A stretch of 64,000 bases of DNA from a bacterium (GCA_037446635.1 JBBIIG010000014.1:16294-80293), one strand, 5' to 3'; positions 260 to 49,264 are shown, numbered from the stretch's first letter. Program-made: numbers and translations. The notes: a model not told the origin generated them from the sequence alone.

Positions 260-1246
260 ATGACACTCAAAGTAATCTTCTTGACGGGTTTCATTATGGT
301 GTTGGCTTCCGCGCTCTACGCACAGTCAAAAGATTTGCCAGCGGAGTACAAACAGATTCTGCCGCGCGGACAAATTGCGGCCATCACGCAGCCGCAATTT
401 GTTCCAGCCGACAAAGCCGAAATCGCCGATGACTCGTGGGTGCTGGGCGTGGTCATCGACGGTCAGGCACGGGCGTACAGCTTGAATCTGTTGAACAGCC
501 ATGAAGTGGTGAACGACCAAATCGGAGAGCAGGCTTTTGCCGCGGTGTGGTGACCGCTGGCTAATACCGGCGTCGTGTACGACCGCAAATATCAAGATAA
601 AACCATCACGTTTGAAGCTTCGGGCGGGCTGCTAAACAGCGCGTTGGTCATGCAGGATCGCGAGACCGATAGTTACTGGCCGATTATGCAGGGCGAGGCC
701 ATCGCCGGCGAAATGAAGGGGACGAAGTTAAAAGAAATGCCGGTCGCTGAAAAAGTCCAGTGGAAGGATTGGGTCAAAAAGCACCCGAACACATTGGTGC
801 TCTCGGTGAACGGCCGCGAAGACGGCTTCAATCCCTACAAAACATATTTTGAATCGAAAGAAGGCTTTCGCGGGACGGCGGCAAAGGATCGGCGTTTGGC
901 AACTAAGGAGCCGATCTTCGCTTTTCATTATCAAGGAAAAAGTTACGCGGTACCTTATAAGAATTTTGAGGGCGGCAAAACCTTCGATTTGAATGGTGTG
1001 AAACTCTTTCTCTATCGTCCGCCAAAATCCGAAATTTTCTACTCCACCGCGGCCTTTGCGGCTGCGGGTGATGGGTTTAAGATCGAAAACGGAAAGTGGT
1101 ACCACGTGGATTCGGGCTGCCAGTTTAATCCGAATTCGGGTTCATTTGAAAAGGGACCGGGAGCGTGCCCGGAGAAATTTCATGGGTTTGATACCTTTTG
1201 GTACAATTGGAGTTTGTCCAATCCGGATACCCAACTTTTACGGTAA
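260..1246 (+). CDS. Secreted DUF3179-family protein with an in-frame TGA at 551-553 (candidate selenocysteine). The ORF track splits it into 260-553 and 575-1246.
   Basis: RBS AGAGGAG 8 nt before ATG 260. Signal peptide MTLKVIFLTGFIMVLASALYAQS. Both ORF-track pieces are in the same frame and only the TGA separates them. The read-through sequence ...FAAVW-U-PLANTGVVYDRKYQDKTITFEASGGLLNSALVMQDRETDSYWPIMQGEAIAG... matches what I recall of DUF3179 (..AVTYCPLCNSGIVFDR..FGVSGLLYNSNLVMYDRETxSLW..GEAIAG..), with the TGA at the first Cys. Confidence 0.55.
570..586 (+). promoter_or_regulatory. Candidate bacterial SECIS-like hairpin, 17 nt downstream of the in-frame UGA
   Basis: GGCGUCG-UGUA-CGAC(C)GC gives a 6-bp stem with a 1-nt bulge. 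The tetraloop contains GU, and the loop G is 24 nt after the UGA. Weak, and not validated against a SECIS model. Confidence 0.3.
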
Positions 1247-1354
1247 TTGTAATGAAATGGATTTAACTTTCCGAGAGGAGGTGAAAGAGGAGAGCAAGTA
1301 ACCCCTTTAACTCGCTGTCAAAATTATTCATTCACAAAAAACGGGAGGGTTCCA

Positions 1355-1978
1355 ATGAAAGCATTCAGGACTTTGGTCGTATTCGCTCTGGCAACGGTTG
1401 TAGCTTTTGCTCTGGTCAATCTTTCAGCGCAGGAAACCAAGCATCAGCCCAAACCGCTCACCGAAGAGCAAAAAATGATGATGAAAAACATGGCCATGAA
1501 AAACATGGATAAGTTCATGGCCAGCAAAGACGCCATGATGCAGCTACCTCAGCATCTGAAAAAAACCCAGGACGAATCTATTAAGCTGGGGGAAGAATTA
1601 TTTAATTCGAAGACCGCGCTCAGCACCAATGGCCAGGCTTGCGCCAGTTGTCACCCCGGCGGCGGCACCACCGGCGGCGAAGCCGAGACGCCTATGGCCA
1701 GCGAGGTGACGGGCAAACCGTATAAACTGCCCATCCCGACTCTCATTGGCTCGGCGGCCACGTTTCCGAAATACAAAATTCCTAATGATGCGGTTATTAC
1801 CGTGGGCGATATGGCCAACAACTGCATCATGATGTTTATGGCTGCGCAGCCGCTTGACCCCAAAAGCAAAGAATTTAAGGCGTTGTCTGCTTACGTGACC
1901 TCCTTGAGCAACGAGGACAAAGTGTCGGTGGGAGAAGTGCCAGAGATGATGAAAAAAATGATGGGCGAAAAGAAGTAG
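1355..1978 (+). CDS. Mono-heme c-type cytochrome with a Met-rich N-terminal segment, secreted
   Basis: RBS GGGAGGG. Signal peptide. Single CASCH heme motif. MMMKNMAMKNMDKFMASKDAMM is a Met-rich stretch resembling Cu(I)-binding Met motifs. Confidence 0.85.
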   Translation: MKAFRTLVVFALATVVAFALVNLSAQETKHQPKPLTEEQKMMMKNMAMKNMDKFMASKDAMMQLPQHLKKTQDESIKLGEELFNSKTALSTNGQACASCHPGGGTTGGEAETPMASEVTGKPYKLPIPTLIGSAATFPKYKIPNDAVITVGDMANNCIMMFMAAQPLDPKSKEFKALSAYVTSLSNEDKVSVGEVPEMMKKMMGEKK

Positions 1979-1996
1979 CTTTTCCATAACTGTGAT

Positions 1997-2029
1997 AACC
2001 CTGACGGGGTTCGCAACCCTGTCAGGGTT
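1997..2029. repeat. Palindromic element, family E (AACCCTGACGGGG..AACCCTGTCAGGGTT), immediately after the cytochrome gene stop
   Basis: Near-perfect inverted repeat. The same 15-bp core AACCCTGTCAGGGTT recurs at 37250-37281 and 56364-56379. No T-tract follows. Confidence 0.5.
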
Positions 2030-2058
2030 AAAACCATTGCACAAACTTTAAATTAGTC

Positions 2059-3072
2059 ATGAAGATTGTCAATATCTGTTTACTATTTGTGGTAGTAAGT
2101 TTGTCTATTGTAACCGCGCAAGATGGTGAAGATGCTGCGCGCTGGAAGAACACGCCGCAGGAGGCTTTCTTAAACAGCGAAATTGTTCAAACCTATCAAT
2201 GCACCAGTTGCCACACCATCGCCGAGCGCGGGGGTACCGTCGGGCCGATCCTGAATCAAGTGGGCAATCGCCGAACCGAAGAGTGGCTGCGCCGCTGGCT
2301 GGCCGACCCGCAGCAGGTTAAGCCCGGAACCAAGATGCCCAAGTTTGATTTCACGCCCGAGCAATTGGATGCGGTGGTCGGCTATTTGACCAACATGAAA
2401 AAAACGCTCCGCACCGATGCCATTCTCGCGCAAAACAAATCTTTAATCGAAACAGGCGAGATGCTGTTTGAGGATTACGATTGCCTGGCCTGCCATCGCG
2501 TGGGCTCCGACGGCAGATTTATCGGGCCGGACTTAACCTGGGTTGGGTTGCGAAAGACCGCGGCCTGGGAAAAAACCTGGCTGGCCGATCCCCCCGGATT
2601 TAAGCCCGATACCTTCATGCCTAATTTTCATATCCCGCAAAAGGGAATAGAAGCGCTGGCGGAGTATCTGCATAACCAGCAAGGACAGAAAAATGCCGAT
2701 TCGCAGGAGTGGGAATTTCGCACCAACTTCTTTCTGGGAAACAGCGATCGCGAACGCGGCGAATTGGTATTCAAGCGCTTTGCGTGTTGGGCGTGCCACG
2801 GTGAGAGCGGCAGCGGCGGCATCAAAAATCCCAACATGGCGCCCGACGAAATGATGCCGCCGCTGAAAGAAGCCGCGGTGAAATATACCGAAGCCGAGCT
2901 TTTGGCGCGGCTGAAAACGAAAACCGCGCCCCGGTCGCTGGATGGCAATAAACCAGCTCCGCCATTTTTCTGTCCGGACTATGGCAATTATATGGAAACT
3001 TCCGAATTCAGCGACCTTTACGCTTATTTGAAATCATTCGCGCCCAAGAAACTCAAGTGGCGGTTTAATTAA
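2059..3072 (+). CDS. Tri-heme c-type cytochrome (three class-I cytochrome c domains), secreted
   Basis: Signal peptide. Three CXXCH motifs (CTSCH, CLACH, CWACH), each followed by a Met-containing distal region. Confidence 0.85.
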   Translation: MKIVNICLLFVVVSLSIVTAQDGEDAARWKNTPQEAFLNSEIVQTYQCTSCHTIAERGGTVGPILNQVGNRRTEEWLRRWLADPQQVKPGTKMPKFDFTPEQLDAVVGYLTNMKKTLRTDAILAQNKSLIETGEMLFEDYDCLACHRVGSDGRFIGPDLTWVGLRKTAAWEKTWLADPPGFKPDTFMPNFHIPQKGIEALAEYLHNQQGQKNADSQEWEFRTNFFLGNSDRERGELVFKRFACWACHGESGSGGIKNPNMAPDEMMPPLKEAAVKYTEAELLARLKTKTAPRSLDGNKPAPPFFCPDYGNYMETSEFSDLYAYLKSFAPKKLKWRFN

Positions 3073-3130
3073 GTAAGCGGCATTATTCACAGACGGCAAA
3101 AGGTGAGGACGACATCTACATTGAAGTTTA

Positions 3131-3172
3131 TTAATCCAAATGGGAGTAATGGATTATTGGATCGTTGGATCG
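3131..3172. repeat. 8-bp-periodic GGAKTRWT repeat array, family F
   Basis: TTAATCCAAATGGGAGTAATGGATTATTGGATCGTTGGATCG. The same periodic motif is seen at 162-233, 13547-13642 and 25587-25826. A hairpin TGCCCGCC..GGCGGGCA follows. Confidence 0.45.
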
Positions 3173-3280
3173 TAACGCAAACCTCAGGTTTGCCCGCCTG
3201 CCTAAGGCCTCTGGCGGGCAGCTCAAAGCGGAGCTTTGAGTTACATATATAAAATTATCCAAGCTAAAAGGAGCAGAATC

Positions 3281-4012
3281 GTGTCAGTCAGGAAAGTTTT
3301 TTCGATAGCTTTGCTAGCGGTAGTTGCGCTCATCTATTTGGCCAATCATCGTACCTCCGAGGCCAGTTTAAACGGCGGCGCCGTCACCGGCGTGGTGCGA
3401 TTTCCTGGGGAGTATCCGGATCGCGAAAAGATCATGATCACCAAAGACCAGCAGGTTTGCGGCGCGTTTCAGTACTCGGAGATTTTTGTGGTGGCGGAAG
3501 AAAACCACGGGTTGAAAAACGTCGTGATTACGCTGGTAAATGTCAAAGGTGGGCAAGCGCCGGCCGCGGTAACGGCCACCATCGATCAGAAAGGGTGCCG
3601 CTATATGCCCCACGTGCAGGCCGTGCCGGTCGGCAGCAATTTGGAAATTCTGAATAGCGATGGCATCTTGCATAACATTCATGCCTATTACAATGGACTG
3701 GATCCTAAAAATACCGTCTTTAATAAAGCCCAACCTAAGTTTCTCAAAAAAATCACTCATACGCTGGATAAGGCCGGGATGTACTACTTCAAGTGCGATG
3801 TGCACAGTCACATGAGCGCGTATGTGGCGGTGATGGATCACCCGTATTATGCGGTGAGCGATGACTACGGTAAATTTACGATCGATAACGTGCCTCCCGG
3901 TTCCTATAAAATTCAAGCCTGGCATGAGGCTCTCGGCGTTTTAGAGAAGAACGTTACCGTCGCGGCTGGCAAAACCACTGATGTAAATTTTGATATTTTG
4001 CCAAATGAGTAA
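3281..4012 (+). CDS. Cupredoxin-like (type-1 copper) protein, secreted
   Basis: GTG 3281 is preceded by AAAAGGAGC (the ORF track starts at 3236). Hydrophobic N-terminus. Candidate ligands: His in ILHNIHAYY, then Cys, His and Met in FKCDVHSHM (C-x2-H-x2-M, amicyanin-like spacing). Confidence 0.7.
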   Translation: MSVRKVFSIALLAVVALIYLANHRTSEASLNGGAVTGVVRFPGEYPDREKIMITKDQQVCGAFQYSEIFVVAEENHGLKNVVITLVNVKGGQAPAAVTATIDQKGCRYMPHVQAVPVGSNLEILNSDGILHNIHAYYNGLDPKNTVFNKAQPKFLKKITHTLDKAGMYYFKCDVHSHMSAYVAVMDHPYYAVSDDYGKFTIDNVPPGSYKIQAWHEALGVLEKNVTVAAGKTTDVNFDILPNE

Positions 4013-4033
4013 TTTATCGAGAGAATGTGAATC

Positions 4034-4521
4034 ATGAAAAAGCTGTTCTTCTATTTTTTAGCCATTTCTAGTTTATTGTTAGTCTCGTGCAATAGTGACC
4101 AACCGTTGGGCAGCAATGACGGGGCAAATCCGAGTAAGTCGGGTTTCGGGGTCTCCGGACTTTTGTTTGAGAACAACCTGGTGATGTGGGATCGCGAGAA
4201 CCAAGGCAGCCGCAGCGAATTATTTCCACAAATGTATTTCACCCGCGCCGACGCCGCCGACTTTCCCACCTGGGACACATTTCCTTCCAACCAGATGGTT
4301 TCCGGCGGTCCGCCACGTGATGGCATACCTGCGCTGACCAATCCCAGAATCGTATCCTCAACTTCATAAGTAACGCGAATCCATTTCAGATGACTGATAA
4401 CGAGACCAACAGCGTTTGGAACATCAAAGGCGAGGCGATTTCCGGTGCACTCTCCGGCGTGAAGCTGACACAGATTCCCGCATACAATGTCAAATCTCAA
4501 TATCGTCGTTCCGATTGCTGA
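4034..4521 (+). pseudogene. Scrambled and truncated DUF3179-related remnant; the lipoprotein-like ORF 4034-4369 plus a frameshifted tail at 4390-4521
   Basis: ORF 4034-4369 has a lipobox (LLVSC). It then carries GFGVSGLLFENNLVMWDRENQGS (the DUF3179 central motif) before SGGPPRDGIPALTNPRIV (the DUF3179 N-terminal motif) and stops. A different frame at 4390-4521 encodes NETNSVWNIKGEAISGALSGVKLTQIPAY (the DUF3179 C-terminal region). Motif order is permuted, the CPLC region is missing, and the 3' end overlaps the convergent gene. Confidence 0.45.
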
Positions 4522-4942: not shown

Positions 4943-5275
4943 TTATAAAAGCGTTTTCAGCCTCTCTGTCAACTCACTTTTTGAAATCACCCCGTTTAGT
5001 CGGTCGATCACTCTACCATTTTTGAAAAAGAGCATGGTTGGGATACATTCAATCCCAAATGTCGTGGCGATCGCAGGGTACTCGTCCGCGTTTATTTTCG
5101 CAAAATTAGCTTTACCAGAGAATTCCAGCGCCAAATCTTCGACGATGGCTGTCATGATTTCAGAAGCCCCACTCCAACTGGTCGAGAATAGCACCAGAAC
5201 CGGGAGTACGTTTTCGAGGACCCGGTGATTGAAATTCTTGCTCGTTAATATGATCGTTCTATTGGTTCTCGGCAT
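4943..5275 (-). CDS. Thioredoxin-fold protein lacking the catalytic cysteines (WSGAS instead of WCGPC)
   Basis: Aligns to thioredoxin (..[40 protein letters not shown]..). The likely start is the internal Met at 5273-5275; the ORF track's GTG at 5323 is less likely. Confidence 0.7.
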
Positions 5276-5295
5276 CGATGTTTTTATGTCATTCG

Positions 5296-5898
5296 TTACA
5301 ACCGAATTCTTGCTGGGCAACACGATCTTAAAATATCCGGGTTTAATTTAGCGATTTCTTCGGCAATTTCTTCACTGGTGAATCGGGGTGTGATATGCTG
5401 CGGGCAGTTCCAATCAAAAGCCTGGATTTTGAAAATGATCAGACGCTCAATGTTGGCTTTGTAATCGGGCATCTTCAGTTCTTTTAACAATTCAGCATTC
5501 TGCTCGGCGTCGATCATTTCTGATTCAGCCCATATTTTCAGACGTTGTTGAGAAGGATAGTCCATTAAGAATAGTGACGCTTTACGGCTCGAATTGATGT
5601 TGCCAACACTGATGTATTGCATGTTGCCGCGAAAATCGGCATAGCCGAGCGTGGTGCTATCGATTACTTTCAGAAATCCTTTCGGACCACCGCGGAATTG
5701 CACATACGGCCAGCCGTTTTCGCCAACGGTAGCCATGTAAAAGCTGTCCCTTGATTCAATAAAAGAAATTTCTCTGTTTGTTAGAACATATTGGTTGCCG
5801 GACGCTTCCACACGGGCGTAGGATTGGCGAGAGCCGTACCGTTGCTGAGCCCTTCTAACGCTATCGGTGAAAGCAAACTTGGTGAAATTCTGGTTCAT
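5296..5898 (-). CDS. Pyridoxamine 5'-phosphate oxidase-like FMN-binding (split-barrel) protein
   Basis: 200 aa. ..FYMATVGENGWPYVQFRGGPKGFLKVID..GNMQYISVGNI..ASLFLMDY is typical of PNPOx-like flavin-binding proteins. Confidence 0.7.
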   Translation of the reverse strand: MNQNFTKFAFTDSVRRAQQRYGSRQSYARVEASGNQYVLTNREISFIESRDSFYMATVGENGWPYVQFRGGPKGFLKVIDSTTLGYADFRGNMQYISVGNINSSRKASLFLMDYPSQQRLKIWAESEMIDAEQNAELLKELKMPDYKANIERLIIFKIQAFDWNCPQHITPRFTSEEIAEEIAKLNPDILRSCCPARIRL

Positions 5899-8062: not shown

Positions 8063-9613
8063 CTAGACCGGTTTCCTGATGCCCAGCTTCTGCATGCGAG
8101 AGCGCAGGGTATTGGGATTAATTCCTAACCGCAAGGCCGCACCCTTCGGTCCTTCGATGCGCCACTTCGTTTCCTGAAGAACCGATATGATATGATTTCG
8201 TTCAACATCCTCAAGGGTGGCGACGCTTAAAGCCGGGCTTGATGGCTTTTTCAAGAGTTCTAAGCTTTCATCCACTTGCAGAGTTTTGCCTTTTGCGAGA
8301 ATGATCGCTCGTTCGATAATGTTTTCCAATTCTCTGACATTTCCCGGAAAATGATAGCCTTGCAGAGTCTGCATGACTTGTTGTGACACTTGGGAAATCT
8401 TCTTTCCCATTTTTGCTCCGTATTTTTTGACGAAATGGTTGATGAGCAACGGAATGTCTTCCCGGCGTTCCCGAAGTGGCGGGAGCCTAATAGGAAACAC
8501 ATTCATTCGGTAGAAAAGATCATTCCGGAACTCACCGGATTGAACGGCGTGTTCCAGGTCCCGATTGGTAGCAGCTATCACCCGAACATTTACTTTGAGA
8601 GTCTGCGTGCCGCCGACTCTTTCAAATTCACCTTCTTGCAAAACACGCAGAAGTTTAGCCTGTAAGTCCAAAGGCAACTCACCAATCTCATCCAGAAAAA
8701 TAGTACCGCCATTTGCCAATTCAAAACGGCCTTGCTTGCGAGACAGGGCTCCCGTAAATGCTCCTTTTTCGTGGCCGAAGAGTTCGCTTTCGATCAAATT
8801 GGCAGGCAATGCAGCGCAGTTAACTTTTACGAGCGGTCTTTCCCTGCGCGGACTAATCGTATGTAACGCGCGCGCAATGAGTTCCTTGCCGGTGCCGGTT
8901 TCTCCCAATATGAGCACCGTCGCATCTGTTACAGCTACCCTCTCCACATTTCTCAGGACTTTCTTAAACGGCTTACTCGTGCTAATGATTTCATCAAAGT
9001 TGTGTTCGAGTTTGATTTCTTCCTGTAAATAGACGTTTTCGGCCTGGAGCCGGTTTTTCAATTCCACAACTTCTGAGAAAAGCTGGGCGTTTTTAATTGC
9101 AATGGCCGCCTGGTTGGCAAAAACGGCCAGTCGATCAAATTCTGCCGGCGTCATGACCCGACGGCTGAACATGGCAATGACGCCAAGCAATTCACCGCGA
9201 AAGATAAGTGGGTGGCCTGCAAAGGACTGCAACATGTTCTCCACGAGCCACTTTTTGTTTGGGAGCCGATCATCGTTCAGCACATCATTTGTGGACAGCG
9301 GTTCTCTACTCTGGCCAATTTCTCCGATCTTTAATGCACCGAGAGGAACTCGCCGATACCCCCCATGCGTGCGTGTGTACATCCCGGCACTGGCCTTCAG
9401 GTGTAAGCATTGTTCTCGGCTGGAGCAGCTATCCGCTTTGTAGCATTCCGCGCACAGGTCGCCCGGACCGAGCAGCCAGATGCGTGCAAAGGCCGCGTCT
9501 AATTCATCTACCAGACCTTGGGTAATTGTGGTAAGCACTTCCTGAAGGTTCAGACGCGAGGTCATCTGGAGTGTGATACGCTCGAAACTGTCGTCTTTGA
9601 GTTTTTGCTTCAT
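8063..9613 (-). CDS. Sigma-54-dependent Fis-family transcriptional activator with an N-terminal GAF domain
   Basis: GAF region, AAA+ sigma-54 interaction domain ([43 protein letters not shown]) and C-terminal Fis HTH. Confidence 0.9.
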
Positions 9614-20985: not shown

Positions 20986-22647
20986 ATGAAGCGTTGGACA
21001 TTTGTTTTGTTAATCCTGTTATTTCCGGCTGTGCTTGCCGCACAAGGCGTCGTGCAGGTGTTTGATGCGGATATAGTTGGGGATGTGCTTTGGACTAAGA
21101 ACAACACCTACGTTTTGAACGGTTTGGTATTCGTGGAGGACGGCGAGACCTTGACCATCGAAGCTGGCACGGTGGTGAAAGGGAAGCCGGGGCAAGCGGA
21201 GGCGGCGAGTGCGTTAATTGTGGCGCGCGGCGGGAAGATTTTTGCGGAGGGCACGCCGACGCAGCCGATAATTTTCACCGCGGAGGCGGACGACGTGACA
21301 GACCCGAACGATTTGCCGGCGAACACGCGCGGCTTGTGGGGCGGCGTGATTATCTTGGGCCGCGCGGTGATCAACGTGGCAGGCGGGGAGCAGGACATCG
21401 AAGGCATTCCGGTGACGGAGCCGCGGGGGGTTTATGGCGGCACGGACGACGATGACAACAGCGGAGTTTTTCGGTACGTATCGATTCGCTACGGCGGCAC
21501 CAACATCGGGGCCAACAACGAGATCAACGGCTTGACGATGGGCGCGGTGGGGCGCGGGACGACAATTGAATTTGTAGAAGTGTTCAACAACGCGGACGAC
21601 GGCTACGAGTGGTTTGGGGGGACGGTGAACACGCGTTATTTAGTGAGCGCCTTCAACGATGACGACGGTTTTGATTATGATGAAGGGTGGCGCGGCCACA
21701 ACCAATTCTGGTTTTTGATTCAGGCGGAAGACGCCGGCGGTTCGGGCGGTGAGCATGACGGCGGCACGACGCCGGAGGATGGCTTGCCGTTTGCGATCCC
21801 GTTGATTTACAATGCGACGTATATTGGCAGCGGCGCCAGTTCAGCTAACACGCGCAGTGACTTTGCTTTGAACATTCGGGACAACGCGGGCGGGAAGTAT
21901 TACAACAGTATTTTCACGGATTTCTTTGGGCGGGCGGTTCAGATTGAAGATTTGGCGAGTGGGGAAGACAGTCGGGCGCGTTTGGACGCCGGCGATTTGG
22001 TGCTGCAAAACAACATTTGGTTTGGGTTTGGCGCCGGCAGCGCGACCACGGATTTGTTTGCGCAGGATTTCGTGCATACATACATGACCGACGCTGCCAA
22101 CAACAATCGCTTCGTCGATCCCATGCTGAATGGCGTCAGCCGCGCCGCCGATGCCGGCCTTGATCCACGTCCCGATGATGCAAGTCCAGCGTTGAGCGGA
22201 TTCGTTCAGCCGCCGACTGACGGTTTTTTTGCGCCCGTCGATTATGTCGGAGCGTTTGGCGACCAAAACTGGGCAGCCGACTGGACGTTCCTTTCAGAGG
22301 CCGGCTATCTGACGACCGCTGGCGCCCGTACGCCCAACGTGGTCACTTCAGTGGAGGAAGAGCGAATTCCAAACGTTCAGCCCACCAGATTTACGCTCAG
22401 CCAGAATTATCCGAATCCGTTCAACCCGACCACCAACATCAACTATGATTTGGTAACGACTACCCAGGTTCGGTTGACGGTGTACAACCTGCGCGGCCAG
22501 AAAGTCGCCACGCTAGTGGATGGTGTGCGCCCTGCTGGCAGCTACACCGTTACCTGGGATGCCGCAAATCTTTCGAGCGGAATATACATCTACCGTTTGG
22601 AAGCTGGCAAAAATGCCGTCTCGCGTATGATGACGCTTTTGAAGTAA
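20986..22647 (+). CDS. T9SS-sorted secreted protein (Gly/Asp-rich, beta-helix-like passenger plus a T9SS C-terminal sorting domain)
   Basis: Strong RBS GGAGAGGAGG. Signal peptide. The C-terminus ..FTLSQNYPNPFNPTTNINYDL..VRLTVYNLRGQKVATLVDGVRPAGSYTVTWDAANLSSGIYIYRLEAGKNAVSRMMTLLK is a classic Por_Secre_tail domain. Confidence 0.8.
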   Translation: MKRWTFVLLILLFPAVLAAQGVVQVFDADIVGDVLWTKNNTYVLNGLVFVEDGETLTIEAGTVVKGKPGQAEAASALIVARGGKIFAEGTPTQPIIFTAEADDVTDPNDLPANTRGLWGGVIILGRAVINVAGGEQDIEGIPVTEPRGVYGGTDDDDNSGVFRYVSIRYGGTNIGANNEINGLTMGAVGRGTTIEFVEVFNNADDGYEWFGGTVNTRYLVSAFNDDDGFDYDEGWRGHNQFWFLIQAEDAGGSGGEHDGGTTPEDGLPFAIPLIYNATYIGSGASSANTRSDFALNIRDNAGGKYYNSIFTDFFGRAVQIEDLASGEDSRARLDAGDLVLQNNIWFGFGAGSATTDLFAQDFVHTYMTDAANNNRFVDPMLNGVSRAADAGLDPRPDDASPALSGFVQPPTDGFFAPVDYVGAFGDQNWAADWTFLSEAGYLTTAGARTPNVVTSVEEERIPNVQPTRFTLSQNYPNPFNPTTNINYDLVTTTQVRLTVYNLRGQKVATLVDGVRPAGSYTVTWDAANLSSGIYIYRLEAGKNAVSRMMTLLK

Positions 22648-24018: not shown

Positions 24019-24042
24019 AGGGGCGTATGACTATACGCCCCT
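24019..24042. repeat. Family B palindrome (AGGGGCGTAT-GACT-ATACGCCCCT)
   Basis: Perfect 10-bp stem. A related copy TAGGGGCGTATGG|CCATACGCCCCTAC lies at 32804-32831. Confidence 0.5.
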
Positions 24043-24059
24043 GCGAAGTGAACCACCAA

Positions 24060-25547
24060 ATGCAAATCAAATCCAACAACTCGCGCTCTTCCCTCGAAGC
24101 CCTTTCCGAAATCGCGCAGGTGATCAACACCATTCAGGAGATCGATCCCCTGCTCGAAAAAGTTTTGGAGATCGCAATGGCCACGCTGGAAGCGGAGCGC
24201 GGATTCGTGCTGCTAAAATCTGCCGCGGCGCCGCAGGGTTTCGAAATCCGCAGCAGCCGCAATTTCGCCGAAACGCAGATTTCCGATCTCACCCGCATTT
24301 CCACCAGCGTGGTGCAAGCGGTGCTGAGCGCCGGCGAACCGTTGCTGGTTTATGAAGCGCAGACCGATCCCAAATTCCGCGAGACCGAGAGCGTGGTGCT
24401 GCAAAAAATCCAGTCCATTGCCTGTGTGCCGCTGCGGCTGAAAGCCAAACAGATCGGCGCCATTTATCTCGACAGCCTCACCCGCCGCAGCAAATTCACG
24501 CAGGACAGCCTGCCGTTTCTGACGGCGTTCGCCAATCAGGCCGCCATCGCCATTGAAAATGCCAAGCTCTATCACGCCCTGCGGGATGAAAATCGCCGGC
24601 TGCGCTCTGAGGTGCAGCGGCTGCACGGTTTCAAAGAGATCATCGGGCAGAGCCCGAAGATGCGCGCGGTGTTCGACATGCTGAGCCGGGTAGTGGAGTC
24701 CGATGCCACCGTGCTCATCGAAGGCGAGAGCGGCACCGGCAAAGAACTGATCGCCCGCGCGCTGCATTACAACGGGCCGCGCAAAGACCAGCCGTTCATG
24801 GCGCTGTTTTGCGGCTCGCTGCCGGACTCGCTGTTGGAAAGCGAGCTCTTCGGCCACAAAAAGGGCGCGTTCACCGGCGCGGTTTCGGACAAACGCGGAC
24901 TTTTTGAAGCGGCGGACGGCGGCACGTTTTTTCTCGATGAAATCGGCGATCTCAGCCCGCAAATTCAAACCAAGCTGTTGCGCGTTTTGCAGGAGGGCGA
25001 AATCAAACGCGTGGGCGAAAATCAAATTCGCAAAGTGGACGTGCGCATCGTCTCCGCTACCAACAAAGTGCTCAAAGATTTGGTGAAAGCCGGCAGCTTT
25101 CGCGAAGACTTGTTTTATCGCCTCAACACCATCAACATCGTGTTGCCGCCGCTGCGCCAGCGCAAAAGCGACATCCCGCTTTTAGCGCATCACTTTCTCG
25201 ACAAGTATGCCGCCAAGAAAAAAAATCACATCAAAGGATTCGACAAATCCGCGCTCGAGGCGTTGACGAATTATTTGTGGCCCGGCAACGTGCGCGAGCT
25301 GGAAAACACGATCGAACGCGCGGTGGTGATGGCGCGCGGTGAGTTTATCACCGTCGCGGATTTGCAACTGCCGAAAAATGAGCCCGCGGCAGAAATCGAA
25401 TCCGGTTTAACTCTGGAAGAAGTCGAAAAGCGGTTGGTGCAAAAAACATTGCTGGATCAAAACCATAATATCTCCGAAACCGCGCGCGTGCTGGGCGTGT
25501 CGCGGCGCTGGCTGCATTATAAAATCAAAGAATGGAATATTTCGTGA
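24060..25547 (+). CDS. Sigma-54-dependent Fis-family transcriptional activator with an N-terminal GAF domain (second copy in the window)
   Basis: ..[94 protein letters not shown]. Start taken at ATG 24060, because ATG 24027 lies inside the family B palindrome. Confidence 0.9.
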
Positions 25548-29701: not shown

Positions 29702-29998
29702 CCGGAGTGAAACGCTTTAGCGTTGCAGTTTCCCTGTGGAGTGCCAAACTTTAGTTGGCCTACGTCACCTAAAGCTTGACACTCCTCGCCTGCGCAAACT
29801 TTTCTCACGCCATTGCAAACCCTGCGCATACCAATTTTTCAACGACTCAATTGGGCGCGTTAAATCACGAATCGTAAACCATCACAAGATTACCACTTAA
29901 CGCCCCTCGATTGTGACGCGACCGCGCTGGCATCGCCTTTGCGTGATGAACGTCCAAACCAATTCACCCAATTTATTTCAAAAATAGGAGGATTTGTC

Positions 29999-32740
29999 AT
30001 GCCAACGGTACGGTTTACAAAATCAATTTTATGGACGTTGCTGGCGAGCGCGATATTGCTGGCCGCAACGAACCTGTGGGCGGCGGGAGAATTCGTTCTA
30101 TCCACGCGCTCCGATTTTTCCACCAATGATCGCATTTTCACCCGCGACGACACGCTGTTCATGAAAGTCATTGTGCCCAATATCGATGTCACTGAAATTC
30201 ACGACAACGAATTTCGTTTGCACGCTGAGAGCGGCGGCGGAAATTTCGAGGGCAAATTCACCAACCATCTGAACGGCACCTTCACCGCGAAGCTGGCGCT
30301 AAAAAACGCCGATCCCGGCGAAGCTAACTGGGAATGGCGCGGCCGCATCCGCGATCGCCACGGCCGCGAATTTGAAGCCGAAGTGAATCTGCAAATCGTC
30401 GCCAGCATCAATGGCGATATCGAAGTGAGGCTCAAGGGTAAGATTGAGGCACTGGGTGCGGATTTTGTCGTTGTCCAAAAAACGAAAGTCTTTGTGGATG
30501 CCCATACCCAAATCGTTGATGAAAATGGACAGGCGTTGACGTTCGTCGATTTGCGCGTCGGGCAGTCGGTGACAGTGACCGCGGTACGGAAAGAGAACGG
30601 CGATCTACTGGCGCGGCGCATCGCGTTTGTTTCGCGTTCGGAAAACGAACTGGAGTTGAAAGGCGTCATCGAAAGCATCGACGAAAGCAGTCTCGTGGTG
30701 CTTGGTCTCACGTTCAAGGTCGATGCCAACACCGAAATTGAAGACCACGACAACAACCCGATTTCGTTGAATGATTTATCGGTTGGCCAGTTCGTGGAAA
30801 TCAAAGCGAAAATTCAGAGCGACGGCTCGCGGCTGGCGCTGCGCATCCGCGTTGAAGATCACTCCGGTGAAATCGAATTGAAGGGGAAAATTGAAGCGCT
30901 GGGCGACCACAGTTTGGTTGTCTCCGGCGTGACGTTTGAAGTTACAGCGAATACCGAAATCCTCGGCGACGATAACCAGCTTATTTCGTTTGCCGATTTG
31001 CAGGTCGGCTTTTTGGTGGAGGTGAAAGGCATTCCAACTCAAGGGGAAACGATCATGGCAACGCGCATCAAAGTGGAGGGAGAATTATTTGTCGATGATG
31101 AAATCGAGTTTACCGGGCTGGTGTTCGAGGTCGGCGATCATTTCATCGTGGTTTCCGGGTTGCGATTTGAAGTGAGCGCCGCCACCGTGATTTTAGATGA
31201 CGACAATCATCCCATTACTTTGGCCGACATTCGCGCCGGCGTGTTTGTGGAAATTCGCGCGGACGTTGCCGCCGATGGCTCATTGCAAGCGACCAAAATT
31301 AAAATCGAAGATCGCTTCGACGATGAGGTCGAATTGACCGGCGAAATCGAAAGCATCGGAGAAAACACCCTGACGGTCGATGGCAAAGTTTTTGTGGTCA
31401 ACGAAAGCACGGTGGTGCTGGACAACCGGAACCTGCCGATTCCCTTCAGTGCGCTGCAGGTTGGGATGCTCGTCGAAGTGCGCGCTGATTTGCAGTTGGA
31501 CGGCTCGCTGCTGGCGACGCGCATCAAAATCGAAGATCGCGATGACGACGAAGTGGAGCTGACGGGCCGCATTGAGGCGATTGTTGGCCAAACGCTGGTG
31601 GTCGGCGGCTTCACGTTCACCGTGGACGCCAACACCGTTGTTCTCGACAACCGCAATAACGCAATCGCCTTTGCCGACCTGCGCGTTGGGTTGATTGTGG
31701 AGATTCGCGCCGATAAGCAATTGGACGGAACGCTGCTCGCCACCCGCATCAAAATTGAAGACCGCATGGCAGACGAAGTGGAAATCACCGGATTGATTGA
31801 AGCCCTCACCGAGTCCGCGATCACCGTCGCAGGCCAAACCTTCCTGTTCACGGAAAACACCATCGTGCTGGATAATAACAATTTGCCCATTCCGCGCGCG
31901 AATCTTTCGGTGGGGCAGCGGGTGGAAATCAAAGGCGATCTTTTGGCGGACGGCACGCTCATCGCGCTGCGAATAAAATTAGAGGACGGCGCCAACAACG
32001 AAGTGGAGGTTGAAGGGCCAATCTCCGCGGTTGGTCTCGGCACGCTTGCGGTTCTGGAAAATAATTTCATCGTCAACCTCGGCACCGAGATTCTCGACAT
32101 CAACAATTTGCCAATCACATTGGGCGATTTGTTAGTTGGACAGGTCGTGAAAGTGCGCGCTGTGCTGGAACTGAACGGCACGCGCATCGCTACGCGCATT
32201 CAGTTGAAAAACGTGGTTGTGATGTCAGGCAATATCGCGCAGGTGAACGTGAATAGCGTGGTGATTTTGAATAAAGTTGTGAAGATTGATGCCAACACGT
32301 TGATTCTGGCCGAACAGAATCGCGCCATCGCTTTTGCGGATTTGAAAGTCGGCGACCGCGTGGAAGTGCGCGGTGAGCCGCAGCCCAACGATGAAGTAAA
32401 CGCGACGAAAATCAAAACTCAGCAGCCGAATGTGATTACCGGTATCGGCGATTCTGATGCGGGTTCCAACCTTCCCAAGCAGTTTGCGCTGGAGCAGAAT
32501 TATCCCAATCCCTTCAACCCGAGCACGAACATCAGTTACAATCTCGCGCGCGACGGCCGGGTTCGTCTCGCGGTGTACAACTTGCTGGGTCAGCGAGTCG
32601 CCACGCTGGTGGACGAGGTTCGCCCGGCTGGGAGTCACACTTTAACCTGGAATGCCGCGAATCTTCCCAGCGGCATTTACATCTACCGTCTGGAAGCCGG
32701 CGGCAATGTGTTGTCGCGGCGGATGACACTTTTGAAGTGA
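29999..32740 (+). CDS. Large T9SS-sorted protein built from ~10 tandem DUF5666-like repeats
   Basis: RBS AGGAGGA before ATG 29999 (the ORF track starts at 29939). The repeat unit is ..EVELTGxIEAIGxxTLVVxGxTFxVxANTxVLDxxNxPIxFADLxVGxxVEVRAxxQxDGSLLATRIKIED. C-terminus FALEQNYPNPFNPSTNISYNL..GIYIYRLEAGGNVLSRRMTLLK. The antisense ORFs across the repeats look spurious. Confidence 0.8.
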   Translation: MPTVRFTKSILWTLLASAILLAATNLWAAGEFVLSTRSDFSTNDRIFTRDDTLFMKVIVPNIDVTEIHDNEFRLHAESGGGNFEGKFTNHLNGTFTAKLALKNADPGEANWEWRGRIRDRHGREFEAEVNLQIVASINGDIEVRLKGKIEALGADFVVVQKTKVFVDAHTQIVDENGQALTFVDLRVGQSVTVTAVRKENGDLLARRIAFVSRSENELELKGVIESIDESSLVVLGLTFKVDANTEIEDHDNNPISLNDLSVGQFVEIKAKIQSDGSRLALRIRVEDHSGEIELKGKIEALGDHSLVVSGVTFEVTANTEILGDDNQLISFADLQVGFLVEVKGIPTQGETIMATRIKVEGELFVDDEIEFTGLVFEVGDHFIVVSGLRFEVSAATVILDDDNHPITLADIRAGVFVEIRADVAADGSLQATKIKIEDRFDDEVELTGEIESIGENTLTVDGKVFVVNESTVVLDNRNLPIPFSALQVGMLVEVRADLQLDGSLLATRIKIEDRDDDEVELTGRIEAIVGQTLVVGGFTFTVDANTVVLDNRNNAIAFADLRVGLIVEIRADKQLDGTLLATRIKIEDRMADEVEITGLIEALTESAITVAGQTFLFTENTIVLDNNNLPIPRANLSVGQRVEIKGDLLADGTLIALRIKLEDGANNEVEVEGPISAVGLGTLAVLENNFIVNLGTEILDINNLPITLGDLLVGQVVKVRAVLELNGTRIATRIQLKNVVVMSGNIAQVNVNSVVILNKVVKIDANTLILAEQNRAIAFADLKVGDRVEVRGEPQPNDEVNATKIKTQQPNVITGIGDSDAGSNLPKQFALEQNYPNPFNPSTNISYNLARDGRVRLAVYNLLGQRVATLVDEVRPAGSHTLTWNAANLPSGIYIYRLEAGGNVLSRRMTLLK

Positions 32741-45304: not shown

Positions 45305-46891
45305 ATGAAACAGTATCGCAGAAGCTTTCTCGTCATTTCCTCGGTTACTTTGCTGTTTTTAATTTTGGCGTGGCGCTTTGACGCCCAAACCAAAACCGGA
45401 AACATCTACGAACAGAGCCAGCGCTTCATCGAAGTGATGCGGGCGGTGAAAGAATTTTATGTGGAAGATTTGGACACCGGCGAAATGGTGGAGGGCGCCA
45501 TCAACGGCATGTTGGAACGGTTGGACCCGCATTCGGTTTTTATCCCCAAAGAAAAGGTGCAGGAAATCAACGAACAATTTGAGGGAGAATTCGAGGGCAT
45601 TGGCGTGGAGTTCGTCATTAACAATAAATTGCCGACGATCGTTTCCCCCATCGCTGGTTCGCCTTCGGAAAAGGTGGGGCTGCGCGCTGGCGATCGCATT
45701 GTCCGCATCGAAGGCGTTTCGACCTATGGATTCACCGAGGATCAAGTACGGGAAAAACTGTTGGGCCGCAAAGGCGCCAAAGTGACCATTGAAATTTTGC
45801 GCCCCGGTTTGGAGGAGCCGTTCACGGTGACCATCACTCGCGACAAAATTCCGGTGTACAGCGTGCTGGCGGCTTTCATGCTCGACGCGCGCACCGGCCT
45901 GATCAAAATCGGGCGCTTTGCGCGCACCACCAATGAGGAGTTTCAGAAGGCGCTGCTCGACTTAAGGGGCAGGGGCATGAGGCGGCTCATTATCGATTTG
46001 CGCGGCAATGCCGGCGGCTATCTCGAACAAGCGGTGGAGATGGTCGATCACTTTTTGGGCGGCGAAAAGCGCATTGTTTACACTCGCGGCCGCACTCCCA
46101 ACTCCAGCGAAGATTACTTTGCCACCGCCGCCGGCGATTACGAGCAATTGCCGCTGGTGGTGTTGATCGATCACGGTTCGGCCAGCGCCGCAGAAATTGT
46201 GGCCGGCGCGATTCAAGATTGGGATCGGGGATTGGTCGTGGGGCAAACCAGTTTTGGAAAAGGGTTGGTGCAGCAACAAATTCCTTTAAAAGACGGCTCG
46301 GCCTTGCGGGTAACCATCGCCCGCTACTACACGCCCAGCGGCCGGATGATCCAGCGCCCCTACGAGTATGGCCTCGAAAGCTATTTTGCCGAGGGTTTGG
46401 ATGATCGCGATCCCAACGCGGAGGCGGACAGCGCCTCCGGTCGTCCGGTCTTTTTAACCAGCGGCGGACGGAAGGTTTATGGCGGCGGCGGGATCTCGCC
46501 GGATGTGATCGTCAAACCCGAAGTGATTTCGCTCACCTCGGTTAGATTACTACAACAGCAGATTTTCTTTGAATACGGCACCACCTACGCCGCGCAGCAT
46601 CGTAGTTTGGCCAGCAATTTTCTGGGGTTTCGCGATCGTTTTCAGGTTGATGAGCAGATGGTGAACGACTTTATCGGCTTGGCGCGCCGCCGTGGCGTCG
46701 AGGTGAACGATCAACATGTTGCGCAGGACAGCGGCTTCATCAAACGGAGGATCAAAAGCGAGCTCGCCCGCAATTTGTGGGGTACACGGGAGTTTTATCA
46801 AATCGAAGCGCTGGGGGACCAGCAGGTGGTGGAGGCCAGAAAACTCTTCGAGCGCGCCGCGAAGATCGCCGGGCTGAAACTCGAAGGCTAA
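45305..46891 (+). CDS. Carboxyl-terminal processing peptidase, family S41 (PDZ plus S41 domain)
   Basis: TM/signal N-terminus. PDZ (..SPIAGSPSEKVGLRAGDRIVRIEG..). S41 catalytic region (..LVVLIDHGSASAAEIVAGAIQDWDRGLVVGQTSFGKGLVQ..). Confidence 0.9.
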   Translation: MKQYRRSFLVISSVTLLFLILAWRFDAQTKTGNIYEQSQRFIEVMRAVKEFYVEDLDTGEMVEGAINGMLERLDPHSVFIPKEKVQEINEQFEGEFEGIGVEFVINNKLPTIVSPIAGSPSEKVGLRAGDRIVRIEGVSTYGFTEDQVREKLLGRKGAKVTIEILRPGLEEPFTVTITRDKIPVYSVLAAFMLDARTGLIKIGRFARTTNEEFQKALLDLRGRGMRRLIIDLRGNAGGYLEQAVEMVDHFLGGEKRIVYTRGRTPNSSEDYFATAAGDYEQLPLVVLIDHGSASAAEIVAGAIQDWDRGLVVGQTSFGKGLVQQQIPLKDGSALRVTIARYYTPSGRMIQRPYEYGLESYFAEGLDDRDPNAEADSASGRPVFLTSGGRKVYGGGGISPDVIVKPEVISLTSVRLLQQQIFFEYGTTYAAQHRSLASNFLGFRDRFQVDEQMVNDFIGLARRRGVEVNDQHVAQDSGFIKRRIKSELARNLWGTREFYQIEALGDQQVVEARKLFERAAKIAGLKLEG

Positions 46892-47021
46892 AAAATCGGC
46901 GCCGGGCGCAACAAAAAAAGAGTTGACTTTTTAACAAAAATTATTTATACTTTTGCAAATTTTTGAAATTAAAGGGTGTTATGCGAGTAATTTAATCACT
47001 TATTTGGGAGGAGAAACCGTA

Positions 47022-47657
47022 ATGAATTTGCTGAAAATGTTCCACGACGGCGGCGGTTTTATGTGGCCGATTTTAGCCTGTCTGATCCTCGGAATCGCAA
47101 TTAGCTTGGAACGATTTTGGACCCTATCAAGAGCTTCAGTTAATACTCGAAAGTTTCTCGCCACCATTAAAAAAGCGCTGCAAGAGGGTGGGGTGAAGGC
47201 GGCGACGGAGGTGTGCACCAACACTCGCGGGCCCGTGGCCTCGATTTTTCACGCCGGGCTGCTGCGCGTTGATCGTGGAATCGAACACGTTGAGAAAGCG
47301 ATCATGAACGCTGGCAGCATTGAAATGGCCTTCCTCGAAAAGGGCCTGGTATGGTTGGCTACCATCGTCAGCGTAGCGCCCATGTTGGGCTTCCTCGGCA
47401 CCGTGTGGGGCATGATCTTAGCGTTCGATCAGATCGCCCTTGCTAACGACATTTCTCCCGCCATCGTGGCCGGTGGTATTTCGGTAGCGCTTTTGACCAC
47501 CCTGTTTGGTCTGGTGGTCGCCATCATCATTCAAACTGCCAACAACTATTTCATCTCTCGTGTTGACAAGCTCATCGTCGATATGGAAGAGAGCTCGGTT
47601 GACTTTGTTGACACGCTCATCGAAATGGAAAAAGAAGGCCGGCTCAAAAAGGCGTAA
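47022..47657 (+). CDS. exbB: MotA/TolQ/ExbB-family proton-channel protein
   Basis: RBS GGGAGGAG before ATG 47022 (the ORF track starts at 46953). Three TM segments. ..ATIVSVAPMLGFLGTVWGMILAF... Confidence 0.85.
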   Translation: MNLLKMFHDGGGFMWPILACLILGIAISLERFWTLSRASVNTRKFLATIKKALQEGGVKAATEVCTNTRGPVASIFHAGLLRVDRGIEHVEKAIMNAGSIEMAFLEKGLVWLATIVSVAPMLGFLGTVWGMILAFDQIALANDISPAIVAGGISVALLTTLFGLVVAIIIQTANNYFISRVDKLIVDMEESSVDFVDTLIEMEKEGRLKKA

Positions 47658-47696
47658 TCGAGTTTTGAGGCAGTATTTTTTAAGGAGCATTCAAAT

Positions 47697-48098
47697 ATGC
47701 TGGTAGAAAAAAAGAAAAGTCGCATGACAGAAATTCCGTCGGCGTCGTTGGCTGATATCGCATTTCTACTCCTGATCTTTTTCCTGGTTACCACCACTAT
47801 CGACGTGGATAAAGGCATCGGTTTGACGCTGCCTGCCAAGGGCGAGGAGACCCAGGTTCGCACCAAAAATATCACCAATCTATTGATCAATGCCCAGGGC
47901 CAAGTTTTGCTGGATAACGAATTGATCGAGATTGGCGATATTAGCCGAATCGTTCAGGAAAAGATCCGCGAGAACGAAAATTTGATCGTCTCCGTCAAAA
48001 CCGATCGCGAAACCAAATACGAAGTCTTCGTTCAGGCTTTGGACCAATTGAAAATAGCCAACGCATCGCGTATTTCAATTGCCGAACCCGAGAAGTAA
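47697..48098 (+). CDS. exbD: ExbD/TolR-family biopolymer transport protein
   Basis: ..EIPSASLADIAFLLLIFFLVTTT.. single TM plus periplasmic domain. 133 aa. Confidence 0.85.
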   Translation: MLVEKKKSRMTEIPSASLADIAFLLLIFFLVTTTIDVDKGIGLTLPAKGEETQVRTKNITNLLINAQGQVLLDNELIEIGDISRIVQEKIRENENLIVSVKTDRETKYEVFVQALDQLKIANASRISIAEPEK

Positions 48099-48114
48099 AA
48101 AGGAGGGTGCAAAT

Positions 48115-48528
48115 TTGAAATTCTCGAAAAAGCAAAATGTGCAAGCAGGCATCCCGTTGGCGTCGTTGCCGGACCTGGTCTTTTTGCTATTGATATTTTT
48201 TATGGTGTCATCGGTTTTCAAGGAATTTTCCGGCATCCCGGTGCGGCTGCCGAACGCCTCGAAGATTGAAAAATTGTCCGGCAAACGTGACGTCGCCTAC
48301 CTTTGGCTCAGCAGAGACGGCCAAATCTCCATCGACGATAAATTCGTCAACCTGTCGGATGTTTCGAAAATCATGTACCAGAAACGTATCGACCCCATGC
48401 ACCCATTGAAAGTGGTGTCGTTGAAAATCGATAAGGAAACGGAAATGGGGAGAGTTACCGACATCCACGAGCAGCTCCGTGAAGCCGACGCGCTAAATAT
48501 CAATTACTCCGCAAAACCTTCATCATGA
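48115..48528 (+). CDS. exbD: ExbD/TolR-family biopolymer transport protein (second copy)
   Basis: TTG 48115 is preceded by AAGGAGGG; the ORF track starts at 48079. ..GIPLASLPDLVFLLLIFFMVSSVF... Confidence 0.8.
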   Translation: MKFSKKQNVQAGIPLASLPDLVFLLLIFFMVSSVFKEFSGIPVRLPNASKIEKLSGKRDVAYLWLSRDGQISIDDKFVNLSDVSKIMYQKRIDPMHPLKVVSLKIDKETEMGRVTDIHEQLREADALNINYSAKPSS

Positions 48529-48538
48529 GAGGTGATGT

Positions 48539-49177
48539 ATGAAAAAGAATCCAGAGGCGAACTTGAAGCTCAAATACCGTAAAGTATTTGAAGTGAGCTT
48601 GATCATCACGCTGGTGGTGCTGATCGTTTTCTTTCAAATGCTGCGCGCCATCAGCTTGGAGGCCACCGAAGCCAAAACTCCGGAAATTAAGATCGAGGTA
48701 GCAGACATTCCGCCCACCGAGCAGATAAAACGTCCGCCTCCGCCTCCCAAGCCTTCGGTGCCGATTCCCACTGAAAATGAGGACATTCCGGAGGATTTGA
48801 CGATTGAAAGCACCAACCTCGATTTAACCGAAATACCGCCTCCGCCTCCGCCTCCCGAGGACGACGGCGAAGTCAATATTTTTGTGCCGTATGATGAACC
48901 CCCAAGCCCAATCGGAGGCTTTGCCGCTATTCAGCGCGCCTTGAAATATCCGGAAATTGCGCGCAAAGCCGGCATCGAAGGCAAGGTTATCGTGCAGGTG
49001 CTGGTCTCCGAAAAAGGGGAAGTGGTGGATACCAAAGTGATTAAATCCCTGGGACACGGCGGCATGGATGAAGCGGCAGTGAATGCTATTCGCAGCGTTA
49101 AATGGAAACCCGCTTTGCAAAGAGATAAACCCGTCAAAGTTTGGGTGGCTATTCCGGTTATTTTCAAGCTCAAATAA
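48539..49177 (+). CDS. tonB: TonB-family energy transducer
   Basis: N-terminal TM. Pro-rich spacer (PPPPPKPSVPIP..PPPPPPEDD). C-terminal TonB domain (..GKVIVQVLVSEKGEVVDTKVIKSLGHGGMDEAAVNAIRSVKWKPA..). Confidence 0.85.
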   Translation: MKKNPEANLKLKYRKVFEVSLIITLVVLIVFFQMLRAISLEATEAKTPEIKIEVADIPPTEQIKRPPPPPKPSVPIPTENEDIPEDLTIESTNLDLTEIPPPPPPPEDDGEVNIFVPYDEPPSPIGGFAAIQRALKYPEIARKAGIEGKVIVQVLVSEKGEVVDTKVIKSLGHGGMDEAAVNAIRSVKWKPALQRDKPVKVWVAIPVIFKLK

Positions 49178-49212
49178 TTGGGGCTAAAAATTGCCTTCAG
49201 ATTTTTTGTAAA

Positions 49213-49245
49213 AGCGGCGACCGAGAACCGGCGCCGCTTTTTTTG
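49213..49245 (+). terminator. Rho-independent terminator of the exbB-exbD-exbD-tonB operon
   Basis: AGCGGCG-ACCGAGAACCGG-CGCCGCT followed by TTTTTTTG. Confidence 0.7.
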
Positions 49246-49264
49246 TTGTGAATGAGTTAATGCT

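Follow-up and report, generated by a model that had tools for sequence, protein, structure and literature searches.

The locus described here raises the question of whether proteins of the DUF3179 family are tied to periplasmic cytochromes and copper proteins. It spans positions 260-4521 of a 64,000-nt stretch of bacterial DNA (GCA_037446635.1 JBBIIG010000014.1:16294-80293), called the window below, from whose first letter all coordinates are counted. Five consecutive genes lie on its + strand and are called g1 to g5: a secreted DUF3179 protein, two c-type cytochromes, a cupredoxin and a degenerate DUF3179 remnant. A preliminary description of this DNA had listed these five genes, had assigned a signal peptide to each of them and had proposed that DUF3179 takes part in extracytoplasmic copper or redox handling. 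We recovered all five open reading frames (ORFs) on the + strand, and all five N-termini are signal-like when judged by eye for a charged N-terminus, a hydrophobic core and an A-x-A-like site. Our analysis points to a composite locus, in which a conserved core of g2, g3 and g4 is joined by g1, which comes from another gene group, and by a dead g5. We hold this explanation as a whole, that is, the core triad, its relocation and g1 as an ordinary selenocysteine (Sec)-containing DUF3179 protein, with moderate confidence.

Conservation of the g2-g3-g4 triad

Look-ups seeded with g2, together with a metagenome scan, yielded 46 loci, which are given L numbers where they have to be told apart. On nearly every contig that is long enough, g3 directly follows g2, and in most of them g4 comes next. 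Exceptions occur in a distant group whose g3 is shorter and in a few further loci, and also in L117, where no g3 stands after a distant relative of g2. Judged from this conserved order, the conserved unit is g2-g3-g4, a predicted three-gene periplasmic operon that is kept across phyla. The triad occurs without any DUF3179 gene in L085, L130, L101, L124, L118, L120 and L121.

We also searched for genes that would place the triad in a known pathway. No cop, cus or cue genes were found near any triad in the annotated flanks of L081, L083, L085, L127 and L130, and SoxY, SoxZ and SoxB were found neither in these flanks nor among the scanned ORFs of the window. The proteins of the locus itself gave no Pfam or NCBIfam match to CopC, PcoC or a multicopper oxidase.

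Relocation of the triad and decay of g5

In L081, L083/84 and L091, which belong to related KSB1-like genomes, the triad is embedded in a longer gene order, consisting of ExbB, ExbD, ExbD, TonB, a hypothetical gene, an extracytoplasmic function (ECF) sigma factor, an anti-sigma factor, g2, g3 and g4, followed by one or two outer-membrane barrel genes and a DUF3179 paralogue. The paralogue is a lipoprotein of 367-423 aa with a CPLT motif, and it is followed by DAGK and DUF2064 genes in L081 and L083/84. The same upstream block is found in L086/87, where the barrel genes are missing and the paralogue begins 8 nt past g4, and L089 keeps the same order up to the end of its contig after the first barrel gene.

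The window contains this ancestral operon site in an emptied form (45305-52213, + strand). Between 45.3 and 52.2 kb we found an S41 protease, ExbB, ExbD, ExbD, TonB, a hypothetical gene, the anti-sigma factor (49959-50615), a DAGK-family kinase (50658-51560) and DUF2064, and phmmer searches with the L081 flank proteins matched this region with E-values of 1e-56 to 1e-220. The anti-sigma gene and the DAGK gene are separated by 42 nt, with no gene between them. The ECF sigma gene that is paired with the anti-sigma gene in the relatives was not found at this site.

The last gene of the locus, g5 (4034-4521, + strand), had been described as a degenerate DUF3179 remnant, and it does carry DUF3179 fragments that are recognised by Pfam. 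A lipobox (LLVSC) is present, and a lipoprotein signal model recognises the sequence. When the intact paralogues of L081, L083, L086 and L091 were compared to it by tblastn, only three pieces were recovered, in the order ~127-161, 41-68 and 314-349; the piece ~127-161 shares an ORF with the lipoprotein signal, and the C-terminus is missing. These features identify g5 as a scrambled pseudogene, the decayed copy of the triad-linked lipoprotein DUF3179 paralogue.

Because the ancestral flanks stand contiguous and empty in the same window and the g5 remnant follows the triad, we conclude that the triad and its DUF3179 paralogue were shifted as a block over about 46 kb to the site downstream of g1. 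In this genome the ECF sigma gene was also lost, and after the move the accompanying paralogue decayed into g5. Comparison of the relocation junctions with the relatives by blastn showed similarity inside coding regions only, which leaves the breakpoints undefined. In the metagenome-assembled genomes (MAGs) of L001 and L002, the loci with the closest homologues of g1 (68-69%), the triads are located on other contigs (L081 and L130), and the triad of L130 has no DUF3179 gene nearby.

The predicted Sec-type DUF3179 protein g1

The frame of g1 (260-1246, + strand) is open throughout except for a TGA at 551-553, and the protein had been proposed as a candidate Sec-containing protein. This proposal held, as in full-length homologues the position of the TGA is taken by the Cys of V-W-C-P-L-A-N. 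With Cys placed at the TGA, the Pfam model of DUF3179 (PF11376) matches g1 with 187.5 bits (cut-off 27; E-value 4.7e-55) over residues 37-324 and model positions 2-292. In a scan of one genome per species for the closest homologues of g1, the TGA was found in a W*PLAN context in 77 of the 80 species loci. Many homologues in the databases are about 223 aa long because their genes were called too short, from just past the TGA. An exact-sequence look-up of the truncated g1 product, like that of g3, matched no recorded contig.

Downstream of the TGA lies a hairpin that resembles a selenocysteine insertion sequence (SECIS) element (567-585, + strand). It has a 7-bp stem and a CGUGU loop, is positioned 16-34 nt downstream of the UGA, and the first nucleotide of its loop is 23 nt past the U of the UGA. 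The hairpin emerged from inspection of 76 sequences and explicit pair counts. Across the 76 distinct sequences 90.6% of the cells are paired, compared to 20-50% in slid controls, and double-sided changes in the stem were observed in 25 cells versus 4.7 in shuffles. For instance, a C-G pair becomes U-A where a Gly codon GGC changes to Ser AGC and an Ala codon GCC to GCU. The Val-Val-Tyr codons at the hairpin are invariably GUC GUG UAC. The stem in the g1 of the window has one G-A mismatch. Other searches gave no comparable signal: Rfam at gathering score had no match in the window, so no catalogued SECIS family is present, the single-sequence fold of the post-UGA region was no better than shuffles (z -0.11), and RNAalifold on a 63-nt alignment returned only a weak, different stem. 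As to the Sec machinery, there is no tRNA within the window, and SelA, SelB and SelD are missing among its Pfam-scanned ORFs.

DUF3179 has been catalogued as a selenoprotein family with the motif UxxC/T (PMC9312934, PMC13188914), and members carry the NCBI name 'DUF3179 domain-containing (seleno)protein'. g1 belongs to the same family and has its predicted Sec at the first position of C-P-L-x, but its subfamily, W-U-P-L-A-N, reads UxxA where the surveys give UxxC/T, and its Cys forms read CxxA. By frame continuity, alignment with Cys, conservation of the codon and the covarying hairpin, g1 can be counted among the ordinary members of a Sec-containing DUF3179 subfamily that is widespread and already known; the UxxA variant is a small addition. 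Of the motif CPLC/UPLA given in the preliminary description, only UPLA stood, since the g1 subfamily reads C/U-P-L-A in both its Cys and its Sec forms. Nothing was found that ties the C/U-P-L-x motif to copper handling, which had been suggested as its role. A CxxC redox motif for DUF3179 was also considered and rejected, the second position being Ala or Thr in the g1 and paralogue subfamilies.

The closest full-length Cys homologue (P0002) has an AlphaFold model with a predicted local distance difference test (pLDDT) score of 92. Neither by fold nor by sequence was a relative found in the Protein Data Bank (PDB), so the fold offers no lead on function. Two full-length homologues, P0035 and P0098, have Ser at the Cys/Sec position (VWSPIAN and VWSPMAN), which indicates that not every member strictly needs Cys or Sec there. 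An extra C-terminal Cys pair (SGC... and ...CP; g1 residues ~283 and 300, window 1100-1170) is common to Sec-type DUF3179 proteins. It is missing from most of the aligned full-length Cys-type homologues and present in the Ser-type P0098; possibly the pair forms a disulfide.

Upstream of g1, the 3' end of a DUF2703-like gene (2-178, + strand; label from Pfam) runs off the window start, and the residues it encodes agree with the C-terminal end of the DUF2703-like gene located ahead of the Sec-type DUF3179 gene in L127. Such a gene precedes g1 here and in L127 and L128. In L127 (1-7800) the region upstream of g1 comprises two AhpC/Redoxin genes, YceI, an FGE-sulfatase, a 680-aa flavin adenine dinucleotide (FAD)/Fe-S oxidoreductase and the DUF2703-like gene, which is 14 nt away from g1, while 228 nt separate g1 from g2. 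This redox gene group may be the true functional context of g1. Adjacency of g1 and g2 was otherwise found only in L127 and L128 (their g2 being 95% identical), and g1 adjoins cytochromes only in this lineage. When window 323-3193 was compared to L127, DNA identity was 78.7% for g1 and 92.2% for g2-g3, which indicates that g1 and g2-g3 differ in divergence or in history.

Gene neighbourhood of DUF3179

The preliminary description had set conservation of gene neighbourhood as the test of a link between DUF3179 and cytochromes or cupredoxins. For Sec-type DUF3179 proteins in general the outcome was negative. Among the closest homologues of g1 in the 80 species, none had a homologue of g2 or g3 within 8 kb (0/80), and a g4-like gene was found in two, related genomes. 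Genes with CxxCH motifs were not enriched around the 80 loci (9/379 within 3 kb versus 8/394 beyond). Clustering of the neighbours returned an ECF sigma factor (20 loci) as the only recurrent partner, other families being weaker and scattered.

The outcome was positive for the downstream paralogue in L081, L083, L086 and L091 and for the gene in L117, where a CPLC-type DUF3179 gene directly precedes the distant relative of g2. Approximately 17 dereplicated contexts of the triad or g2 had usable flanks, and in six of them a DUF3179 gene lies within three genes. These six contexts trace to about three events, namely the ancestral downstream paralogue, the upstream Sec type of the window, and L117.

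Such recurrence could be expected if DUF3179 were a working partner of the heme and copper module, acting as a Cys/Sec carrier or chaperone in the way that SoxY does for SoxAX, with the upstream Sec copy having replaced the decayed paralogue. In line with this, the paralogue has the same orientation as the triad that it follows in L081, L083, L086 and L091, with the gap of 8 nt in L086, it was relocated along with the triad, and in L117 a DUF3179 gene stands immediately ahead of the g2 relative. Moreover, the sole strongly conserved Cys is the Sec position, and enzymes of the SoxA type attach substrates to a cysteine of a protein (PMC4423706). However, cytochromes are near none of the 80 Sec-type homologues of other species, CxxCH genes are not enriched there, and the MAG with L001 and L081 has its Sec-type gene on a separate contig. 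In addition, at least seven contexts have the triad but no DUF3179, and the paralogue has become a pseudogene in the window. Ser takes the Cys/Sec position in some homologues, and the g1 of L127 is far closer to its upstream gene (14 nt) than to g2 (228 nt). We therefore regard a partnership of this kind as unlikely.

Because the triad is intact without DUF3179 in seven loci and the paralogue is dead in the window, DUF3179 appears to be a recurrent but dispensable neighbour, at most accessory and not a core component. Of the role in extracytoplasmic copper or redox handling that had been proposed for DUF3179, the recurrent neighbourhood remains, whereas the general link to cytochromes and copper does not.

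The cytochromes g2 and g3 and the cupredoxin g4

As described before, g2 (1355-1978, + strand) is a mono-heme, Met-rich cytochrome; it has one CxxCH motif (CASCH) and the stretch MMMKNMAMKNMDKFM. Its assignment to cytochrome c was confirmed, but it is not a generic member, as it belongs to the SoxA/TsdA domain (PF21342; 51.3 bits, cut-off 27). With the SoxA equivalog TIGR04484 it reached 52.4 bits, below the cut-off of 110. In an alignment with SoxA of Rhodovulum sulfidophilum (1h31), the sole non-heme Cys of g2, Cys157, falls on the heme ligands Cys114 and Cys222. Ten residues, M48, N50, M51, M55, M153, N155, N156, C157, M160 and F161, are invariant in the g2 family (16 homologues), and Cys157 is retained in the 50%-identity representatives. 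The single heme of g2 is probably ligated by His and Cys.

In TsdA and SoxA an invariant Arg119 is located four residues ahead of the ligand Cys123 (PMC4423706). The position four before Cys157 is Met153, invariant in the g2 family, so that the active-site Arg of SoxA/TsdA is lacking and the pocket motif reads M-x-x-N-C-x-x-M-F. Further Met residues are present in two Met-rich arms, an N-terminal helix (M48, M51 and M55) and a C-terminal PEMMKKMM tail, and a count along the sequence puts the Met content of the mature protein at about 10%. The 50%-identity representatives have Met-rich N-terminal runs of their own, for instance MMKMMGMGDM. The preliminary description had likened the Met stretch to CopC, PcoC and CueO; the likeness holds for the Met-rich composition, but neither for homology nor for copper-resistance neighbours.

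The g2 family is small, with 19 clusters at E <= 1e-30 and 95 at E <= 1e-10 (50% identity, 1.84 billion representatives). Its hosts are sediment-dwelling KSB1, Calditrichota and Acidobacteriota, and several homologues carry the Joint Genome Institute (JGI) label 'thiosulfate dehydrogenase'. Four of the more distant metagenome loci (L107, L108, L110 and L122) have two tandem g2 paralogues ahead of g3.

For g3 (2059-3072, + strand) the description as a tri-heme cytochrome proved correct, the three heme motifs being CTSCH, CLACH and CWACH. The protein consists of three class-I domains, of which the first is SoxX-like. The SoxX equivalog TIGR04485, a model of the mono-heme type, matches the tri-heme g3 with 83.2 bits (cut-off 61) when summed over two of the three domains. 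Among solved structures, g3 is closest to generic class-I cytochrome domains from oxidases and bc complexes.

Within the 80 nt that separate g2 from g3 there is a perfect 16-bp hairpin (1996-2030, + strand) with a folding energy of -28.4 kcal/mol (z -6.0) and without a U tail. This hairpin is conserved in the close relative L127, whereas L081 and L086 lack it. It may act in the processing or stability of the mRNA, or it could set the ratio of g2 to g3 expression.

The ORF of g4 spans 3236-4012, and its likely start is a GTG at 3281 behind AAGGAG (gene 3281-4012, + strand). The amicyanin-like C-x2-H-x2-M spacing noted before is present as CDVHSHM. The Pfam model Copper-bind (PF00127) scored 20.5 bits, just short of the cut-off of 21.2. 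The AlphaFold model of g4 has a pLDDT of 93, and Foldseek matched it to amicyanin, plastocyanin and pseudoazurin (probability 1.0, template modelling (TM) score ~0.7 of target). The predicted copper ligands His131, Cys172, His175 and Met178 are invariant in 35 homologues. Together the model and the conserved ligands identify g4 as a type-1 copper protein, with predicted copper binding. The earlier assignment as a cupredoxin was correct for the fold but incomplete, as g4 also has a C-terminal CarboxypepD_reg domain, besides an N-terminal signal/anchor helix. With amicyanin, plastocyanin and pseudoazurin it shares the cupredoxin fold, the His-Cys-His-Met set and the amicyanin-type ligand spacing, and it differs from them in the C-terminal prealbumin-like CarboxypepD_reg domain and in an extra conserved Cys pair. 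More distant homologues of g4 are solitary and occur in unrelated contexts.

Proposed function of the triad

The triad resembles SoxAX, especially forms with a mono-heme SoxA, in that an adjacent gene pair encodes a periplasmic SoxA/TsdA-fold domain with an aligned distal Cys and a SoxX-like class-I cytochrome. It differs from SoxAX in the Met that g2 has for the invariant active-site Arg, in a partner with three hemes where SoxX has one, and in the cupredoxin gene of the operon. In addition, no SoxYZ, SoxB or SoxCD genes are near the triad, and the SoxA equivalog score is far under its cut-off. The SoxAX of Starkeya novella is reportedly a heme-copper protein. With TsdA/TsdB the triad shares the catalytic-domain fold and the His/Cys heme motif of g2, and a separate multi-heme acceptor is encoded alongside. 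TsdA, however, is a di-heme single chain with Arg109, Arg119 and Ser127 around its substrate (PMC4423706), whereas g2 has one heme and a Met at the position of Arg119. Among SoxAX/TsdA-type systems, the triad represents a variant that has not been described before.

Most likely, the triad works in the periplasm as an electron-transfer chain that oxidises some substrate other than thiosulfate. g2 would oxidise the substrate at its His/Cys heme, g3 would carry the electrons away from g2, and g4, as a dedicated blue copper protein, would deliver them to the respiratory chain. The substrate is probably not thiosulfate because the invariant thiosulfate-binding Arg of SoxA/TsdA is replaced by an invariant Met, because Met and Asn surround the Cys, and because g2 has Met-rich arms.

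The domain assignment and the aligned ligand Cys of g2, the score of g3 above the SoxX cut-off and the JGI name of several homologues would also fit a genuine thiosulfate dehydrogenase or SoxAX, from which the cupredoxin would receive electrons derived from sulfur. Such an enzyme is difficult to reconcile with 52 bits for the SoxA equivalog against a cut-off of 110, with a g2 that has one heme and no electron-transfer domain, and with SoxY, SoxZ and SoxB missing near the triad in the window and in the five annotated loci. We consider it quite improbable.

At the other extreme, the triad could be a mere soluble electron-carrier chain without a catalytic site, serving a respiratory enzyme that is encoded elsewhere, with DUF3179 as a bystander. 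The resemblance of g3 to cytochrome domains of oxidases and bc complexes, the solitary distant homologues of g4 and the lack of an enzyme gene conserved beside the triad are consistent with this. Yet the invariant lone Cys, the M-x-x-N-C-x-x-M-F pocket and the conserved Met-rich arms of g2 point to a ligand or substrate site, and the known SoxA/TsdA-fold cytochromes are catalytic (PMC4423706). This makes a pure carrier chain very unlikely.

If the triad is an oxidising chain, the substrate of g2 could be a soft cation or an uncharged species, among which Cu(I) is the leading candidate, though a tentative one, and a thiol the second. The likeness of g2 to Met-rich periplasmic Cu(I) proteins, namely the Met-rich domain of CueO, CopI and PcoC/CopC (PMC11494321, PMC13308877), lies in conserved MxM/MxxM clusters and in an exported redox protein beside a cupredoxin gene. 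g2 differs from these proteins in that it has no sequence homology to them, has heme and not copper as its redox centre, and has no copper-resistance genes nearby. In a specific form, the triad would be an oxygen-independent, heme-based periplasmic system for Cu(I) oxidation or handling, with DUF3179 as an optional chaperone or redox partner. The Met-rich arms would capture Cu(I) at the Met/Asn-lined His/Cys heme, and electrons would pass to the three hemes and then to the blue copper protein. We give this form a low probability.

Several points weigh against the interpretation given here. Co-transcription of g2, g3 and g4 is deduced from conserved gene order only, while a strong hairpin separates g2 and g3 and the gap between g3 and g4 is 208 nt. 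His/Cys ligation in g2 is likewise a prediction from alignment, and the Met-rich regions of g2 could serve other roles. Gene context lends no support to Cu(I), as there are no copper-resistance genes near the triads. Finally, because three separate arrangements of DUF3179 with g2 exceed chance, by an estimate that assumes few copies per genome, a real accessory role of DUF3179 is possible.

Other features of the window

The - strand genes downstream of the locus (DUF1348, thioredoxin-fold, PNPOx-like, hydrolase and others) are unrelated to it. In the thioredoxin-fold ORF (4943-5323, - strand; Pfam Thioredoxin, 6e-19), W-S-G-A-S takes the place of W-C-G-P-C, and the protein is therefore probably redox-inactive. 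Two sigma-54 activators with GAF domains are encoded at 8063-9613 (- strand) and 24027-25547 (+ strand). Genes with Por secretion tails at 20986-22647 and 29939-32740 fit an organism of the Fibrobacterota-Chlorobiota-Bacteroidota (FCB) group or of KSB1/Calditrichota. A scan for promoters and terminators returned sites that were no commoner than in shuffles.

Implications

The gene neighbourhood of DUF3179 gives no support for a general tie of this family to cytochromes or copper. Within DUF3179, whose fold is without a solved relative, the main conserved site is the Sec/Cys residue. If the substrate of the triad is indeed not thiosulfate, the chemistry of Cys-ligated SoxA-fold cytochromes would be wider, and the automatic annotation as 'thiosulfate dehydrogenase' that is spreading in metagenome data would have to be corrected. 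A Cu(I) system, if true, would be an anaerobic counterpart of CueO and would represent a new chemistry for the SoxA fold. As a small family in sediment-dwelling phyla, g2 and its relatives may mark a niche-specific metal or sulfur process.

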